Assembly (NCBI GenBank): GCA_963721455.1
Contig: CAVRJG010000056.1
Span: 32,001-96,000 of the forward strand
DNA from: an uncultured Methanosarcinaceae archaeon
GTDB taxonomy: Archaea > Halobacteriota > Methanosarcinia > Methanosarcinales > Methanosarcinaceae
DNA: 64,000 nucleotides
Reading direction: 5' to 3'
Position 1 is the first letter of the stretch. Each line of letters opens with the position of its first letter. Below the pieces are notes generated by a model that was not told the DNA's origin, searched no databases, and saw only the letters and a program-made list of their open reading frames with translations. Below, piece by piece: positions 52,686 through 62,205 of the stretch. The translations under genes and the position numbers were made by a program.

Positions 52686-54875
52686 TCAATAATCATTGAT
52701 TGTCCTTTGCCCTGAAGAAGAGCCTTTCCCAGGAGGTTCAGGCTCCGTAATTTCAGGGAATGCATCTCTTTTCCCTATCTGCTTAAAGATCCTTTCCGCA
52801 ACCTTCGGCCCCAGAAGAGCAGCCACTTTTTCCGGATCAGCACCTGCAAGGTCTGCTGTTGATCTGAAGCCTGCTTCGTAAAGTCTCCTTGCCCTCACGC
52901 GCCCAATGCTTCTGATATCGAGCAGATCCATCAAATCCGGGCCTGCTCCGTAATGTATCCGCTTTTCGAGTTCTGCAGCTTCTTTTGCCCCTTTGAGGCC
53001 AAGGATCCTGGCAAGCTGGGTGGCCACATGCATGATCCATTCAGCAATATCCGCAATTGCACGAATGTCGCCTTCCCCTATGCCAAACTTCAGGCAAATT
53101 TCGTTTTCAGATTTTTCACGGACCCAGTCAACAAGGAGAAGAGAAGTCTTGACCTCCCCCAGGAACCATTCATATTCAGTAATGTTGAAGGGACTCGGGA
53201 CCTTTACGAACTCGCTGGCGTGAGCCATTACGTAATCGTTGATCTCCTGATAGTCCTGGTTCCGCATGTACAGCAGGCGCATATCAGGCGTACTGCAGAC
53301 CAGATGCAGCAGGGTAAGCTCCGTCAGGGTTTCTGCTTCTCTCAGGCCCTTTGCAATGCGGGCGGCAGAAAGAGGGTCTATATAGAGCCTTGAGACAAGT
53401 TTTCCGAAATTTGTAGGAATAAGGGCATCTGTGCTCTCAAGCATCCCTTCCTGCCGCAAAAAGATAAGGCATTCTTCCACAACCGTCGAAAGCCCGAAGT
53501 TCGAATACTGGAAAGCGAAAAATGTTGCCTCCAGAAAATCCATGAGTTCTTCCTTTGTCCGCGCAAAGCCGTTGGAAATTGTAGAGAGCACATGAGTCCT
53601 GAGGGCATTTTCGGTTCCGAGCTTGGACCAGATATCTTCGGCTTCTGCCTCGATATAGTTCTCAAAAAGGAAAACAAATTCCTCATACGATTTTGCAAGA
53701 AGCACAGCTTCTCCGTACGGGTCGAGCCCTGGCCTTCCTGCCCTTCCTGCCATCTGCTTGTACTCGAGCACAGGGATAGGCTGCATCCCGCCTTCAGAGG
53801 AATAGCGTCGGTAACTTCTGATAATTACGCGCCTGGCAGGCAGGTTGAGCCCGGCTGCAAGGGTAGGAGTGCTTGAAATCAGCCTGATTTTTCCTTCCCT
53901 GAAGCCATCCTCCACAAGTTCCCTTAAAGACGTCGTGAGCCCTGCATGGTGAAAAGCCGTCCCTGAACGGATGCAGCCTGCAAGGATCGTTGAAGTATCG
54001 GTTTCACTATTTTCGAGAACCTCGTCTGCAATCCCGGCCAGGGCTTCCCTGTCTTCTGCGGGGAGGGTCTTTTTAACTGTTGAAGCCGCCTTCTTTGCAA
54101 AAGCCGTGCAGTTTTTCCTGCTGCTTTCGAAAACCAGGCACTGCCCGCCTTCCCTGAGGGTATCCAGCGCGAGGTTTATGGCTTCATCTTTTGTGGACTG
54201 TTCAACAGGCTTTTCCCGGCCTTTACAATAGAAAATACTGTTAAACAGTACCCCTTCCAGAAGTTCGGTAGGCCTCCACTCGCTTACTACAAGTTCGGCT
54301 TCCAGCCAGGCTGCAAGCTCATCGGCATTCCCTACTGTTGCAGACAGCGCCAGGATCTGGCAGGATGGGTTCATTTTCCGAAGCTTTGCAAGAGTGACCT
54401 CAAGCGTGGGGCCCCTGTCCGCAGAATCGATAAGGTGTACCTCGTCTGCCACAACAACCGAGATTTCCTGCATCCAGGCAGTCTCGTTCCTGAGCAGAGA
54501 ATCAGTCTTTTCCGATGTGGCAACGATAATGTCGTTTACCCCGAGCCCTTCGTCCCGCAGGTCATAATCCCCTGTGGAAATCCCGACCCTGACTCCAAGT
54601 TCCGAAAACTCCCGAAACCGCCTGAACTTCTCTGAAGCAAGCGCCCTGAGAGGAACGATATAGAGCGCCTTTCCTCCTGCCTGAATGGACTTCAACATCG
54701 CAAGCTCGGCAAGGAGAGTCTTCCCTGAGGCGGTCGGGATTGCAGCAAGCAGGTTTTTCCCTTCAAGCAATCCTTTTTCCACTGCTTCCGCCTGAGGGGG
54801 ATAAAGTTCCAGAATCCCGGAATCCAGATAAAAACGTTTTACTTCGTCGGGCAGATCGAGACTTTCTATCTTCAT
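52686..54875 (-). CDS. hel308: Hel308 (Ski2-like) DNA helicase
   Basis: [31 protein letters not shown]-terminal Hh[10 protein letters not shown]. Confidence 0.95.
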
Positions 54876-55009: not shown

Positions 55010-56776
55010 TCAACTGCTTGCCGAATAATAGTAATTTCCACTTTCCTTCTGTTCCCGGTCAAGCCTTGAGCCGAGGTTATTGACCCGCGGACGCCTTGTT
55101 TCCTCGTCCCTGCGGAAGGTTATGCCCAGGTTTTTCAGGAATTTGTTCATACCGGTTTCCATGCTGAACGGGCCGTGTGCTTCACCGTATACCGAGGGCT
55201 TGCCTTCAAAAACCATAAGTCGCTGGCTCAACATATCGATCATGTAGATATCGTGGTCAACGACCAGGGCTGTCTTCTGGTTATTCTCGGCAAACCGGTT
55301 CAGGACCCTTGTGACCATGGAACGCTGTTCTACGTCAAGGTGGGCGCTAGGCTCGTCCAGAATATAGAGGTCGGCTTCCTTGGACAGGCAGGCTGCAATC
55401 GCAACTCTCTGCAGTTCTCCGCCGCTCAGGTCAGCAAGCAGGCTGTCATAAATTTTTTCAAGCTGGAGGGGATTTGAAATCTCAACCTCATAATAGCTGG
55501 TCCCGAACCGCTTTGAGATGCCGCGCAGGAAATCCTGCACGCTCAAAGGTATATCGGCTTTAATGTACTGAGGCTTGTAAGAGATTTTGACGTTTATCCC
55601 GGGATCTCCTTCATCAGGTTTTATTTCTCCGGCAAGGATTTTTACGAAGGTTGATTTTCCTATTCCGTTAGGGCCCACTATCCCGAGCACTTCACCTTCC
55701 CGAAGGCTGCCGCCTGTGGCTTTCAGGGAGAAACCATCCCCAAATTTCTTTGAAAAGCCGTTGAAGGTAACCATGGACTTAATCTGTGAAGCTTCTCTTG
55801 GAGGATGGGTCTCAAACTTAATGGCTTCAAGCCGGATCCTTATATTTTCTTCAGGGAGGTAGCCTTTAAGGTACTGGTTAATTCCCACACGTACGCTCTT
55901 CGGGAGAGTAATCACACCGAAACCTGCAGGTTCTCCGTAGGCGATATGAATTACGTCCGTAAGCATATCCAGGATTGCAAGGTCATGCTCGACCACGAGC
56001 ACAGCCCTGTCCTTTGAGATCTTCTGGATCAGGCGGGCAACATTGATCCTCTGGTAGATATCAAGGTAGGGGCTGATTTCGTCAAAGAAGTAGAACTGGG
56101 CATCCCTTGACGCACATGCAGCAATTGCCACACGCTGCAGCTCTCCACCGCTCAATTCCGAGATTTTCCTGTCAACTACGCCTCTCAAATCAAGGTAGTC
56201 GACAAGCTCATCCAGAATTCCTCTCTCATCGGTCTTTTCGAGCAGTTCGGAAGTCTTGCCTTTGAAAGCTTTAGGGATCAAATCCACATACTGGGGCTTC
56301 TGGGAAACCCGGACCTTTCCATCCACGACAGCCTTGAAATAGTCGTGAAGCGCAGTGCCAGCATAGTGTTCAAGCACATTATCCCAATCACCTTTTCCCT
56401 GGCCGAAGTTCGGGATCAAAGATCCTGAAAGTATCTGGACCGACGTGCTTTTCCCTATCCCGTTAGGGCCAAGGATTCCCGTCACTTTTCCCACCCTCGG
56501 CACAGGCAGCCCGAAGAGGGCAAAACCATTTGTCCCGTACCTGTGCGTGGGTTCTGTCAGAGCTTCAGGAAGCCCTATGATCATGATGGCTTTAAAAGGG
56601 CATTTGTTAACGCAAATCCCGCAGCCCACGCAGAGTTCTTCTGAGACGACGGGCTTCCCGTCCTCCTCAAAAACAATTGTCTCATCTCCTGTCCGGACCC
56701 TGGGGCAGTACTTTTCGCACTCCTTGCTGCACCTTCTGGGCTGACATCTATCTTTATTGAGTATAGCTATTCTCAT
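55010..56776 (-). CDS. ABCE1/RLI ribosome recycling ATPase
   Basis: N-terminal Fe-S domain (CQPRRC...CP; CVGCGICVNKCP), two GPNGIGKS Walker A, two LSGGELQR. Confidence 0.97.
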   Translation of the reverse strand: MRIAILNKDRCQPRRCSKECEKYCPRVRTGDETIVFEEDGKPVVSEELCVGCGICVNKCPFKAIMIIGLPEALTEPTHRYGTNGFALFGLPVPRVGKVTGILGPNGIGKSTSVQILSGSLIPNFGQGKGDWDNVLEHYAGTALHDYFKAVVDGKVRVSQKPQYVDLIPKAFKGKTSELLEKTDERGILDELVDYLDLRGVVDRKISELSGGELQRVAIAACASRDAQFYFFDEISPYLDIYQRINVARLIQKISKDRAVLVVEHDLAILDMLTDVIHIAYGEPAGFGVITLPKSVRVGINQYLKGYLPEENIRIRLEAIKFETHPPREASQIKSMVTFNGFSKKFGDGFSLKATGGSLREGEVLGIVGPNGIGKSTFVKILAGEIKPDEGDPGINVKISYKPQYIKADIPLSVQDFLRGISKRFGTSYYEVEISNPLQLEKIYDSLLADLSGGELQRVAIAACLSKEADLYILDEPSAHLDVEQRSMVTRVLNRFAENNQKTALVVDHDIYMIDMLSQRLMVFEGKPSVYGEAHGPFSMETGMNKFLKNLGITFRRDEETRRPRVNNLGSRLDREQKESGNYYYSASS

Positions 56777-57951: not shown

Positions 57952-58971
57952 TTAAATAAATTCATTGCTTAAAACATTACCTATCTGATCTATAGATATC
58001 GAATCGATTCCTATTGAATTTAAATGTTTTGAAAATTTAGAAGGCCTGTCCCCTCCGGGGTGATAGACAAGAGTGACTTCAGGGTTAAGTTTTCGAACCA
58101 TATCTTCAAGCCCGCAGGCGTCAAGGTGGTCGCTTATCCTGATTGTTGGGTAAGTATAATCCATTCGGCAGCTGAGCACGTACTTTTTCATGTTCCAGGG
58201 AAGTTTGTTAAGGTCCCAGGGAGCTACTACGAAAACCCCATCATCTCCTTCGGAATCAAAACCTGTAAGTTCCCCGGCATCTTCAAGCATACTCCGGGTA
58301 AGGGCTCTGGTCCTTGCTTCCATACGGATAGCGCCGTCATACCCAAAACCCCTTATGAGTTCAACCGCTCGCTGGGCTTTTCCAAACTCATATGCCCCAA
58401 AAGCAACCGCCCCGTGTTCAAAAAGGGCACATTTCATGCCTTCGAGGTCATCTGTAAAATGACAGGTGGGATCTGCCGGGTCCCCATAGTTAGCTTCAGT
58501 GATAAGGACATCGCAGGGAGGAAGCTTGCTCGCATCTTTGACGTCGCCTGTAACCAGAATCCTTGTCCCTACATCGTTTTCCCAGTAAAAAGCAGTAGCG
58601 CCTGCAGTATGCTCTGTAGGAAAGGTCTTTACCTTTACCCCTTCAACCTCGATTTCCTCCCCGACCCCGCATATGCTGCCCATATATTTTTTGTCGTGCC
58701 TGATTTCAAGAGCCGTTGCTGTTTTATCCGAACACACAGCATTGGGAGAGAGCATAGCCGATTTTCCGTGATGGTCGGAATGGGCATGGGTGATCAGATA
58801 GGCATCGGGCTGCGGATGCTTTCCTGGAGTGCGGGTGGTGTCAACGGAAAACGTGCGTAAATCCCCGGCATCATCCCTGAACCGGAGAGAAATATGCGGT
58901 TTAAAAGTCCCGCGAGAATTACGCTGCCTGAGCGCCAGCACACCAAGATCAATTAGTTTTTTAGAAATCAC
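57952..58971 (-). CDS. Metallo-beta-lactamase fold hydrolase, beta-CASP-like putative nuclease
   Basis: THAHSDHH, HTAG, TGD, EANYG, SDH; GTG start 58971. Confidence 0.82.
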   Translation of the reverse strand: MISKKLIDLGVLALRQRNSRGTFKPHISLRFRDDAGDLRTFSVDTTRTPGKHPQPDAYLITHAHSDHHGKSAMLSPNAVCSDKTATALEIRHDKKYMGSICGVGEEIEVEGVKVKTFPTEHTAGATAFYWENDVGTRILVTGDVKDASKLPPCDVLITEANYGDPADPTCHFTDDLEGMKCALFEHGAVAFGAYEFGKAQRAVELIRGFGYDGAIRMEARTRALTRSMLEDAGELTGFDSEGDDGVFVVAPWDLNKLPWNMKKYVLSCRMDYTYPTIRISDHLDACGLEDMVRKLNPEVTLVYHPGGDRPSKFSKHLNSIGIDSISIDQIGNVLSNEFI

Positions 58972-59334
58972 GCAAATCCTTGAGGAGATTAAACTTAAGC
59001 TATTTAAGGTTAGGGAAATCCCATAGACTCGTGATATACTATATAGTATAAAAATAGAAGACAGCATATAAAATTTGAGCTTTTTTCAGATTTTGCCTTA
59101 AAGCGTCGGACAATGATGTAAAGCGGGAGTTTTCCGCAGTTGCTCTTTTTATGGATATTGCCTGGGAATCTCAAAAACGAAAAAGAAACTGTTTTAAGTG
59201 TTAAGTTTTATCGGAACTTATGGTGTTGGGCAGTTGATCGACCAAGAGGAAATTCACAATCAATGTCTTAGCGAAGATCCAGAAGAACGTATAAATGCGT
59301 TAGAGACAATTAAAATCTAATTTTTCACTCCATA

Positions 59335-59865
59335 CCAGATAAACAACAAGCATGGAATGACTTACATAGACTGACCAATGATGAAGACAGTTATGTGAGG
59401 TCTAGTGCTGCCTCTGCTCTTGGTTCTGCATTTTCTCACGTGCCAGATAAACAACAGGCATGGAATGACTTACATAAACTGACCAATGATGAAGACAGTT
59501 CTGTGAGGTATGAGGCTAGCCTCTAGCTCTTGGTTCTGCTTTTTTCACGTGCCAGATAAACAACAGGCATGGAATGATTTAGCATAGACTGAGCAACTGA
59601 TGAAGACAGTTGATGTGAGAGTATAGTGCTGCCGATGCTCTTGGTTCTGCATTTTCTCACGTGCCAGATAAACAACAGGCATGGAATGACTTACATAGAC
59701 TGACCACTGATGAAGACAGTTGATGTGAGGTATGATGCAGCCAATGCTCTTGGTTCTGTTTCTTCTCAATGTCCAGATAAACAACAGGCATGGAATGACT
59801 TACATAGACTGACCAATGATGAAGACAGGTATGTGAGAACGTCTATGCAAATCACTCTCTTGGAA
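59335..59865 (+). repeat. Five near-identical 108-bp coding HEAT repeats
   Basis: CCAGATAAACAACARGCATGGAATGA at 59335, 59443, 59552, 59664, 59773. Confidence 0.95.
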
Positions 59866-60576
59866 AAGTTTCTATATTCAAGGCTTCCCAAGCAGAAAAA
59901 GAAGAAGATTACAAAAAAGAATTAGAAAAAGCAATTGAATTTTTTGAAAAAGCAGCACAATGAATCAGATGAATGGATATAATCCATCTCAATTTTGCCT
60001 TCCTTTTTACCGTTCTTTCTATACAATAATTTTCAAAAAACAGGAAGCAAAGGAAGAAGTGGACAAATATCTGGCAGAAGCAAAATATGCAATTAAAGGC
60101 TCAAAGAGCAAGGAACTGCTTTTTGAAGCTGTTAAAAATCTTGCAAATGCATTAAAAGAAGTCCAGAATCTGGAAAATCTGGATTTAGAGGCAAAAAAAG
60201 GCGAGCTTAATTTTTATAGAAAATACTGTGATCGTGCAGCAGAACTAATGAGAGAAACTGAAGAAACAGCACCTTTTGCAACAGTAGCTATGAGAAAAGG
60301 GCTGCCTATTCTGGACAGAAATCTAAAAGGGCTTATCGAAGAAATTCAAAAGAAAGCAAAGACTGCATGCAAGGAATCGAAAGGAACTGATACAGAAGAA
60401 ATTGCATGTGCTGTAAGTAGGGAAGTTCAAAAATGGGAAATTGGTAGTCAAGAAGAAATTACATCTTATGTGAGAGTTTTATCTTTACTTTAGAATCAAA
60501 AATCCCAAGGCTTCCAGAGAACGAGCATATTTTTAAAATTATTAACGAGAGCAAAGATCAAAAAGACATTAACAAA

Positions 60577-61530
60577 TTGTTAGAGAATGCTTCAGAGTTG
60601 ATAGAAATAATACCGGAAATAACCATTGATCCTGAGAGAATGAAACCTACAATCGGAATCATTACCGCTTTACCAAAAGAGTATGCAGCGGTTAACATTT
60701 TGCTGGAAAATAAAAATGATAAATATAAGATCCCAGGCTCTGGAGCAGGCCGAAGATATTGCTTAGGAGAAATACTTTCCGAGGACGGAGATAAGCACAA
60801 CTTGGTTTTGGCAACCGCAGGTATGGGCAATAACATTGCTGCAACAAGGGCATCTCTTCTTCTTGAGCACTTCCCGAATGTAAAATCGATTATCATGGTT
60901 GGTATAGCTGGAGGTGTCCCAAATCCATGTAAAGATAAAGTAGATGATCACGTTCGCTTGGGAGATATAGTTGTATCGAATGAGAATGGGGTTATCCAGT
61001 ATGACTTGATAAAACAGGAGATTCAAGAAATTACATATCGAAATCCTCCGAGACCGCCGAGTGCCAGTCTTCTGGAAGCAGTAAGATACCTCGAAGCAGA
61101 AGAAATTCTTGGAAATCGCCCCTGGGAAAAATATATCGTTCAATCTCTTTCTCAGCTTAAAACTGAGCGCCCTTCTGACGATAAAGACATTTTGTACAAT
61201 TCTAGCAATCAACATGAAACGATTCCTCATCCCGAAGACCCAAAGAGAATAAAAGGTCAACCCCGCGTCTTTACCGGACCTATTGCTTCCGCAAATATAC
61301 TTCAGAAAAATCCAAATGCAAGAGATAAATTACGTGAAAAATTCAAAGTAAAAGCAATTGAAATGGAAGCTTCAGGTATTGCTGATGCGACCTGGAATCA
61401 TGAAGCAGGTTATCTGGTGGTAAGGGGCATCTGTGATTATTGTGATTCTCATAAAAATGACGACTGGCAGCAGTATGCGGCTGTTGTTGCTGCGGCTTAT
61501 ACAAGGGCTCTAATTGAATCAATGCCTTAA
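60577..61530 (+). CDS. PNP_UDP_1 (MTA/SAH-nucleosidase-like) domain, intact C-terminal part of the fusion
   Basis: IGIITALPKE, GMGN, IMVGIAGG, VRLGDIVVS, GPIASAN, AIEMEASG, RGICDYCDSHKNDDWQQYAA. Confidence 0.9.
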   Translation: MLENASELIEIIPEITIDPERMKPTIGIITALPKEYAAVNILLENKNDKYKIPGSGAGRRYCLGEILSEDGDKHNLVLATAGMGNNIAATRASLLLEHFPNVKSIIMVGIAGGVPNPCKDKVDDHVRLGDIVVSNENGVIQYDLIKQEIQEITYRNPPRPPSASLLEAVRYLEAEEILGNRPWEKYIVQSLSQLKTERPSDDKDILYNSSNQHETIPHPEDPKRIKGQPRVFTGPIASANILQKNPNARDKLREKFKVKAIEMEASGIADATWNHEAGYLVVRGICDYCDSHKNDDWQQYAAVVAAAYTRALIESMP

Positions 61531-61707
61531 AAATTCGGACTTTCATCTTAAGAATGGTAGTTTAGAAAGAGTAAACAGTTTGATGGGTGGATGCTGCCTA
61601 AAAAACTAAAGTTAATTTGATCCTGAAGAAAGAAAAGGATCTTCTTGAAAAGCGGATCTCAATTATACTTTCAAGTTTTCTCACTTCCCCTAAATATAGG
61701 ATTTAAG

Positions 61708-61797: not shown

Positions 61798-62205
61798 TCA
61801 GGCAGGAGATTCTTTGGTCATGATATAAGCGACCATTCCGGGGTTAAGCTTGCTTTCCCTTGAAACTTTTGCTTCGATATCCTCAGTGGATTTACCTTCG
61901 ATTTTCATTTCTTTTATTTTTTCAGTCACTGAAGATGGAATGGTGTAATATTCGTTTATATCCTTCCTGTGGCCCCAGACATCTCCTTCGATGAGCTGAA
62001 TTCTCTGCATCCTGAGGAACATTTCTATGGACTTTGAAACCGTGGCCATGTAAGATTTGGGTAACTGAATTACCTCAATCTTCGGGCAGGTCTCAACCAG
62101 TCCAAATATATCCTTGTTCGACGGCCTGAAGGCCAGGTGAACAACACGCTCATTAGGGTTAAGTGTAAAGATTTCTTCTCTGGAACTAACTACTCGGATT
62201 TTCAT
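61798..62205 (-). CDS. DUF1699 family protein (copy 3)
   Basis: Same MKIRVVSS...GDVWGHRKDINEYY motifs. Confidence 0.88.
   Translation of the reverse strand: MKIRVVSSREEIFTLNPNERVVHLAFRPSNKDIFGLVETCPKIEVIQLPKSYMATVSKSIEMFLRMQRIQLIEGDVWGHRKDINEYYTIPSSVTEKIKEMKIEGKSTEDIEAKVSRESKLNPGMVAYIMTKESPA

Follow-up and report, generated by a model that had tools for sequence, protein, structure and literature searches.

The window analysed here is a 64,000-nucleotide stretch of contig CAVRJG010000056.1 from an uncultured Methanosarcinaceae archaeon (assembly GCA_963721455.1, 73 contigs, hereafter G000). At 59234-61530 of its + strand lies a gene that appears to encode, or to have once encoded, a single-chain protein of ~760 aa, in which a cap and an array of HEAT repeats are joined, through a helical linker and a short adaptor, to a C-terminal purine nucleoside phosphorylase (PNP) domain that belongs to the PNP_UDP_1 family. 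By analogy with characterised defence proteins, we lean towards the view that this protein is a sensor-effector without an NTPase, which would follow the logic of DSR2 in a single chain and would carry an effector of the ATP-nucleosidase type. The evidence comes from the architecture of the gene, from the kinship and active site of its PNP domain, and from the family of Methanosarcina proteins that share its N-terminal chassis.

Architecture of the HEAT-PNP gene

The list of + strand open reading frames (ORFs) contains only fragments in this region (59198-59320, 59395-59526, 59710-59925, 59960-60493 and 60577-61530). When the intact homologue P0001 (798 aa) is aligned to 59200-61540 with frameshifts allowed, one protein threads through them, as a preliminary description of this DNA had proposed, from a TTG start at 59234 (LIDQEEIH, where homologues have MIDQEEIH) to a stop codon that ends at 61530. 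The threading requires 11 frameshifts, at approximately 59304, 59332, 59525, 59583, 59600, 59622, 59722, 59838, 59962, 59981 and 60466, and meets no in-frame stop. The parts follow each other in the order given below.

59234..59334, + strand: N-terminal cap with the TTG start (LIDQEEIHNQCLSEDPEER...), two frameshifts near 59304 and 59332 (threading against P0001)
59335..59837, + strand: tandem HEAT array of 4.6 units, nominally 108 nt (36 aa) each, with six frameshifts (Tandem Repeats Finder, unit alignment, Pfam, threading)
59838..60466, + strand: capping repeat and TPR-like helical linker (..YANHSLGKVSIFKASQAEKEEDYKKELEKAIEFFEKAAQ.., NPSQFCLPFYRSF..), frameshifts near 59838, 59962 and 59981 (threading)
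60466..60633, + strand: adaptor segment (..SFIFTLESKIPRLPENEHIFKIINESKDQKD..IIPEITIDPER), one frameshift near 60466 (threading)
60634..61530, + strand: intact PNP_UDP_1 domain and stop codon, with the catalytic residues Glu, Met-Glu, Arg and Asp retained (Pfam, AlphaFold2, fold comparison, active-site columns, tree)

The cap consensus MIDQE[EK]IH.QC.S.DP.ER heads most homologues with this chassis. Over 59335-59837, Tandem Repeats Finder reports a period of 109 nt with 4.6 copies and 87% matches, and the alignment of the units gives lengths of 108, 109, 112 and 109 nt, so the five 36-aa repeats first counted are roughly right. On the unbroken piece 59329-59523, Pfam recognises both HEAT_2 (PF13646, 29.7 against a cut-off of 27.7) and HEAT (PF02985, 26.3 against 23.5). 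The PNP_UDP_1 match (PF01048) lies in the open frame 60487-61527, with an E-value of 1.2e-20 and 74.3 bits against a cut-off of 25.1, and covers profile positions 1-228 of 233; in the whole-genome search for the family, the window PNP scores 71.8 bits. The 1044-nt PNP part is undisrupted and 93-95% identical to intact homologues, in agreement with the earlier claim of an intact domain.

No NTPase family was matched by Pfam in any of the pieces, neither a central NACHT or NB-ARC nor another NTPase of the STAND class (signal transduction ATPases with numerous domains), and the model of the linker, made from a paralogue in G000, is all-helical; both results support the proposal of an NTPase-less protein. 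SIR2 had no Pfam match in the pieces either, and thus the N-terminal SIR2 NADase of DSR2 has no equivalent in them. The gene has a GC content of 38.7%, where the genome as a whole has 42.5% and the window 43.6%, and hence it is AT-rich, as had been noted, by a modest margin. The fusion itself is seen beyond the window, since intact full-length homologues of 798-1226 aa exist in other Methanosarcina, including M. acetivorans, M. siciliae and M. barkeri records, and 29 of the 35 best longer homologues have Pfam matches to HEAT as well as to PF01048.

Kinship and active site of the PNP domain

The window PNP is 56-68% identical (E 1e-103 to 1e-137) to the PNP domains of immune-type fusion proteins from bacteria and other archaea. 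In these relatives the fusion partners are NACHT, NB-ARC, TIR, SIR2, protein kinase, LRR-Roc-COR, TPR, FGE-sulfatase, EAD (effector-associated) and receiver (DtcC-like) domains. The PADLOC model 'Effector PN-superfamily' matches the domain at E 2e-21, and the best sequence match among solved chains of methylthioadenosine/S-adenosylhomocysteine (MTA/SAH) nucleosidases (MTANs) is at E 2.8e-8. An AlphaFold2 model of the domain, built from an alignment of 64 sequences, has a pLDDT (predicted local distance difference test) of 91.4 and matches the MtnN fold with TM (template modelling) scores of 0.72-0.82 on the target. A prediction of a two-copy PNP complex scored 0.24 against a mark of 0.42, which is evidence neither way.

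The equivalents of E. coli MtnN E12, M173, E174, R193 and D197 are kept in the window PNP and in 42 of 42 family rows, within the conserved motifs ALPKEY (E), EMEASG (the ribose-binding ME) and RGICDYCD (D). In MtnN, E12 and D197 are functionally important, as titles of crystal entries for its mutants also indicate. At three further positions, MtnN S76, S196 and F207, the window PNP has I, C and W, and its subfamily has an insert of ~70 residues, absent from solved MTANs, in a domain of ~295 aa.

To place the domain, a tree of 50 rows and 293 columns was computed with IQ-TREE (finished search). The outside rows were E. coli Mtn, a plasmid MTAN, the separate housekeeping PNP of G000 (158.6 bits), an Acinetobacter Cap17-like protein and two distant plasmid PNPs, the housekeeping references being MtnN-type rows and one DeoD/MTAP-like row only. 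The Cap17-like stand-in is an Acinetobacter plasmid 'phosphorylase' beside the oligonucleotide cyclase of a CBASS (cyclic oligonucleotide-based antiphage signalling system); the plasmid tblastn search gave only distant PNPs, at 25-34% identity, and these were used as tree references. Three housekeeping rows are split from the other 47, which comprise all of the fusions and the Cap17-like row, with an ultrafast bootstrap (UFBoot) of 88 and an SH-aLRT of 87. The window PNP falls into a clade of 13 Methanosarcina rows (97/90), adjoining P0001, and the Cap17-like row is on the same side of the split, on a branch of length 4.8. The expectation that the PNP would not group with MtnN is thus borne out by the tree, and also by the NCBIfam equivalog cut-offs for MtnN, which the domain misses (89.3 against 169 bits for NF004079 and 44.8 against 73.8 bits for TIGR01704). 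Judged from its sequence, the window PNP is likely an immune ('Cap17-type') PNP-fold N-glycosidase.

A chassis family with interchangeable C-terminal modules

A search with the cap-to-adaptor part of P0001 retrieved 511 homologues at E<=0.001, mostly Methanosarcina entries named 'HEAT repeat domain-containing protein', which have 450-800 aa and lack PF01048; members of the family bear database names such as just 'phosphorylase' or 'HEAT repeat protein'. The linker core was found in 137 of 338 fetched proteins, a sample in which PNP tails are over-represented because many of the proteins came from the PNP search. In these 137 chassis proteins a shared adaptor of ~55 residues precedes the tail, and it stands between the linker and every kind of C-terminal module. 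The tails are distributed as follows.

Small beta-rich module: 52 of 137
Window-type PNP: 42 of 137 (over-sampled)
Coiled-coil modules, some of which end in a hydrophobic helix: 27 of 137
Another module: 7 of 137
Short tails: 5 of 137
Tails with two transmembrane (TM) segments: 4 of 137

The chassis therefore carries at least five kinds of C-terminal module. Two further types of PNP, only distantly related, are also found on it (P0260 and P0279). The window-type PNP with its adaptor occurs in turn on non-HEAT chassis (P0006, P0016, P0031), and the other N-terminal regions found before this PNP in Methanosarcina are AAA ATPase, P-loop kinase-like, STAND-like, HD and KAP NTPase; irrespective of the chassis, all 13 Methanosarcina PNPs form one clade. 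Given that the tails vary on one chassis and that the same PNP, in a single clade, is used on others, the early guess of a paralogue family with swappable effectors is well founded. For the commonest alternative module (P0297, residues 385-494), the protein search gave no usable match. The PNP of P0279 pairs (100/100) with that of a 965-aa Leptolyngbya plasmid protein, downstream of which lie TPR genes. In P0287, P0027, P0028, P0243 and P0299 the HEAT array is preceded by a long extra N-terminal region, either MinD/ParA-like ATPase or TPR.

The model of the paralogue linker from G000 comprises 11 helices with a pLDDT of 86.6. Foldseek found no match to it in the PDB at E<=0.001, and a wide structural scan returned generic TPR-like rows with Z 9-11, covering residues 1-140 only. 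Since these Z values are below the level at which the tool is trusted for helical repeats, no specific fold was assigned to the linker.

The repeats themselves follow a strict pattern. Across 459 units from 152 proteins, positions 19, 20, 23, 24 and 27 have an entropy above 3 bits, while the remaining positions are strongly conserved. The spacing of the variable positions (i, i+1, i+4, i+5, i+8) fits one face of a helix, and designed alphaRep binders reportedly exploited the same pattern. Between 0 and 10 exact 36-aa units were counted in individual proteins, and the lengths of homologues point to longer arrays. As an example of length variation, P0003 (832 aa, found on 33 contigs) is identical to M. 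acetivorans P0004 (1156 aa) apart from lacking exactly nine 36-aa repeats, a difference that may reflect either repeat-number polymorphism or the collapse of repeats in short-read assemblies.

Origin of the frameshifts in the window copy

The preliminary description had taken the indels of the window copy at face value. Its threading across them stands, but the gene itself may be unbroken, given 11 indels in a repeat region of an indel-prone assembly. Ten of the 11 frameshifts are packed into the initial 33% of the gene's length (binomial p of about 1e-4), all 11 read as extra bases, and none lies within a homopolymer. Shifts apart, the repeats keep every consensus residue, and no stop codon accompanies the indels. 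Insertions that cluster in this way, together with an intact consensus and an untouched PNP part, are unlike ordinary decay.

Indel errors are also seen elsewhere in G000. Its sole argG (C17:52672-53857) is split by one frameshift near 53465, and as the two halves are ~90% identical to the intact orthologue in the genome G149, the break is most simply an assembly indel. Fold-back self-matches are present at C19:129054-147355 (18.8 kb, 563 gap openings) and C18:6667-14270 (7.8 kb, 232 gap openings), stretches typical of chimeric long reads that were not polished. One insertion sequence (IS) copy has 26 gaps in 855 bp relative to its twins, and contig C17 contains an internal duplication and ends in GC-rich sequence unlike the rest of the genome. 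Because of these errors, and because the shifts cluster in the repeats as extra bases outside homopolymers with the consensus residues intact, the frame breaks in the window gene are probably due to assembly or polishing error in the repeat, which we judge likelier than a true pseudogene.

It is nonetheless quite conceivable that the window copy is a dead HEAT-PNP paralogue, decaying first in its slippage-prone array and functionless here whatever the family does. Such a pseudogene would explain the 11 frameshifts, and copies have evidently been gained and lost in this genome, where another copy with a PNP occupies the conserved carAB-argG site and a remnant reduced to the cap is left at C3:37335. 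Two observations from other genomes count further against an assembly artefact, namely PNP-only ORFs that start inside the linker and are called in other assemblies (P0121, P0122, P0124, P0126), and a decayed fragment with 4 stops in G020. They indicate that real decay occurs in the family, and thus make a true pseudogene plausible. It sits less well with indels that are all insertions and leave neither a stop codon nor a lost consensus residue, with a PNP part still close to intact homologues, and with the broken sole argG of the same assembly. Nor did reads come to the aid of the artefact reading, as four public metagenome/metatranscriptome runs yielded no array-spanning contig; the best holder contained 0.25 of the sampled words, and the contigs, being short, from relatives and ending inside the array, were uninformative on indels or expression. 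Programmed frameshifting was ruled out, since the 11 shifts are at unrelated sequences and the homologues are in one frame. In general, frameshifts in the repeat arrays of draft assemblies should not lead to a pseudogene call without read-level support, and pending confirmation of its frame the window locus is a poor exemplar of the family.

Comparison with known systems and candidate function

According to the main text of the preprint by Rousset et al. (2023), a Cap17 clade of PNP domains is distributed over CBASS, Avs/NLR-like (nucleotide-binding leucine-rich repeat), prokaryotic Argonaute (pAgo), DRT8, TPR and Detocs systems. In the same text, four such domains, taken from Cap17, DtcC, a fungal NLR and a sponge death-domain protein, are reported to cut ATP/dATP and to be toxic if expressed by themselves, and the D353A mutation of DtcC, at the position of MtnN D197, to abolish defence. 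With the immune PNPs of Cap17 (type III CBASS), DtcC (Detocs) and Avs/NLR-like proteins, the last of these N-terminal, the window PNP has in common the PNP_UDP_1 fold and the catalytic Asp, Glu and Met-Glu, and the receiver-PNP, NACHT-PNP, TPR-PNP and FGE-sulfatase-PNP proteins among its relatives are kinds of architecture listed there. It differs in its position C-terminal to a HEAT array, without a cyclic-nucleotide-binding, receiver or NTPase domain, and in its length, as its subfamily has the ~70-residue insert and a domain of ~295 aa, against 248 aa in DtcC. The term 'HEAT' is absent from the preprint's main text.

The closest parallel for the arrangement as a whole is DSR2, which, according to PMC11850899, is an NTPase-less protein whose HEAT-like repeats sense a phage tail tube protein and activate a SIR2 NADase via a linker and a helical bundle. 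Like DSR2, the window protein is a single chain without an NTPase, in which alpha-solenoid repeats are connected via a helical middle part to an enzyme that is predicted to destroy nucleotides. In DSR2 the order is reversed, with the effector at the N-terminus, and the effector is a SIR2 NADase instead of a PNP; moreover, its repeats have no sequence similarity to canonical HEAT, whereas the window protein has canonical units of 36 aa that are highly identical to each other. As wholes the two proteins are not homologous, and the analogy is one of mechanism only.

Two other comparisons frame the proposal. MtnN is the closest solved fold to the window PNP and has the catalytic residues in common with it, but it is an unfused protein of ~230 aa, whereas the window PNP is fused, contains the extra insert and differs at S76, S196 and F207. 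The chassis family, for its part, resembles fungal and bacterial NLR/STAND proteins in its repeat sensor, interchangeable effectors, many paralogues and variable number of repeats. Unlike those proteins, which have a central NTPase, the window protein and most chassis members have none, although a few members add an N-terminal MinD/ParA-like or KAP ATPase (P0287, P0027, P0028, P0020).

In the mechanism that we prefer, if by a small measure, the hypervariable face of the HEAT array would bind a foreign, probably viral, protein. Binding would alter the conformation or the assembly state of the protein and so release the PNP domain, which would then remove adenine from ATP/dATP; the loss of ATP/dATP would starve the virus, and the infected cell would be arrested or killed. 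A broader proposal, which we put forward more tentatively, is that the chassis proteins form a diversifying repertoire of single-chain innate immune receptors, and may correspond, in archaea and without an NTPase, to the repertoires of NLRs that fungi and plants have. The near-identical 36-aa repeats would shuffle, expand and contract, with the five hypervariable positions creating new binding surfaces, and the common adaptor would plug each receptor into one of several cell-arresting effectors, namely three kinds of PNP, membrane-inserting tails or small domains.

Several observations weigh against the sensor-effector reading. For every member of the family, we infer the ATP/dATP nucleosidase activity, the viral ligand and the protection from relatives and analogues. 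The top NCBIfam match of the domain, though under the cut-off, is the MtnN model, and the nearest solved folds, among the top 50 Foldseek matches listed, are only MTA/SAH nucleosidases or futalosine hydrolases, at 15-22% identity. The placement in a tree that had been advised came out in part as hoped, with the window PNP apart from MtnN and on the side of the Cap17-like stand-in; E. coli Cap17 and V. alginolyticus DtcC are not among the rows. The support for the split from MtnN is only moderate, and very long branches lead to the rows of the Cap17-like protein, P0260, P0279 and Agrobacterium, a kind of placement that the tree tool flags as unsure. With the family profile, the Cap17-like protein scores 44+30 bits, little above the 29+26 bits of E. 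coli MtnN. A scan of viral contigs with P0001, a method that detects close relatives only, found no relative, and the neighbourhood of the gene in the window consists of housekeeping genes and is no defence island.

Three other functions were considered. It is possible, if unlikely, that the PNP generates a signal or has a nucleotide substrate that is not ATP, producing a second messenger by base release or using AMP, NAD-derived or S-adenosylmethionine (SAM)-derived substrates, and that it regulates a downstream partner. A second messenger made via base release by the PNPase domains of conflict systems is proposed as a possibility by Kaur et al. (2020), and the three substitutions near the active site and the ~70-residue insert, given which homology does not fix the substrate, leave room for such a role. 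This would, however, set the window PNP apart from the immune-type PNP domains assayed in the main text of Rousset et al., of which four out of four cleaved ATP/dATP, and for a gene that is monocistronic between opposite-strand genes no partner is evident. Less probable again is a role of the family in telling self from non-self among Methanosarcina cells, or in some other conflict that does not involve viruses, like that of the NLR het loci of fungi. The hypervariable repeat positions, the variable repeat number and the many paralogues per genome would suit such a role, and the study by Kaur et al. links such systems with multicellular prokaryotes, including Methanosarcina mazei, but the effectors look intracellular and no secretion or surface signal was seen. 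Least credible is a housekeeping or regulatory enzyme, that is, a scaffolded MTA/SAH-type nucleosidase for methionine or SAM salvage, which would agree with the best NCBIfam model, with the listed Foldseek matches and with the 'MTA/SAH nucleosidase' in some database names of relatives, but is at odds with the scores under curated cut-offs, with the rarity of this PNP type (5 of 121 family genomes), with the separate housekeeping PNP of G000, with the tree, which parts the family from MtnN, and with the immune-type domains that are its fusion partners.

Genomic distribution and locus

The distribution of the linker is patchy. It is present in 33 of the 121 family genomes, among them 17 of the 19 of the window's genus, at 1-7 copies per genome, frequently arranged in tandem, and a single one of the listed matches has internal stops; in a sample from the phylum, it is found in 22 of 301 genomes. 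In three of the four other family genomes that have the window type of PNP, the ORF (945-948 aa when read from ATG, in open frames of 906-949 aa) also contains the linker. Of the five family genomes with this PNP type, three have the HEAT-PNP gene immediately downstream of carA-carB-argG. G000 has its second HEAT-linker-PNP copy at this site (C17:54120-58586), and the window copy is therefore an extra paralogue elsewhere. In the C17 copy a single frameshift is seen near 55480, and ~45 residues of its PNP are exactly duplicated internally; given the GC-rich 3' end, unlike the genome, contig C17 is probably chimeric. Two further loci of G000 bear on the chassis. At C3:37335-37560 a chassis gene survives as a remnant that breaks off after the N-cap and a single repeat. 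The HEAT protein encoded at C3:73918-76674 (918 aa) is intact and divergent; its C-terminus resembles the linker (29% identity), and it carries no effector.

In the window, as had been described, the HEAT-PNP gene stands alone between conserved genes, which are housekeeping genes on the opposite strand. Its two direct neighbours are the following.

57952..59067, - strand: gene of the metallo-beta-lactamase (MBL) fold (Pfam Lactamase_B_2), divergent from the HEAT gene
61798..62205, - strand: DUF1699 gene (Pfam DUF1699), one copy of a multi-copy family

Further neighbours are EMC6-arch, ABCE1, a Hel308-type helicase, hisD, a thioredoxin gene and cofE. DUF1699 has 13 matches in G000 (E<=1e-20) and 4-22 per genome in 41 genomes of the genus, with 83-96% protein identity. 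Because of these multiple copies, the MBL gene, which is single-copy in 24 of 30 other genomes of the genus, was taken as the synteny anchor instead. The gap between the MBL and DUF1699 genes measures 177-650 bp in 14 of these 24 genomes, inserts of 1.8-11 kb are present in 7, and 3 were not judged. Since the two genes directly adjoin each other in these 14, the HEAT-PNP gene has the character of an insert, and the site is variable. In G149 (C1:2757400-2765000), it is occupied by HsdM, HsdS and HsdR, which make up a complete type I restriction-modification system (verified with Pfam), and the same three-ORF pattern is found in G014 and G013. The MBL-DUF1699 interval thus varies in content and in some genomes houses defence genes, although its wider neighbourhood in the window is one of housekeeping genes.

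Possible implications for methanogen immunity

To our knowledge, little is known about the resistance of methanogens to viruses beyond CRISPR and restriction systems. The novelty implied by the preliminary description needs to be narrowed, since PNP effectors in NLR-like, TPR and further systems are already present in the main text of Rousset et al. (2023) and the logic of DSR2 is likewise known. The novel element appears to be a HEAT chassis, canonical and hypervariable, that combines a common adaptor with interchangeable effectors and that methanogenic archaea have in many copies per genome. Full-text literature searches found no description of the HEAT chassis family, some members of which may be listed in the supplementary tables of Rousset et al. 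The family would couple this chassis to a kind of effector that has already been shown to destroy ATP in bacteria, a fungus and a sponge. Given that intact homologues exist in genetically tractable species, for instance P0004 in M. acetivorans, the idea is directly testable, and the family is worth testing in tractable Methanosarcina.

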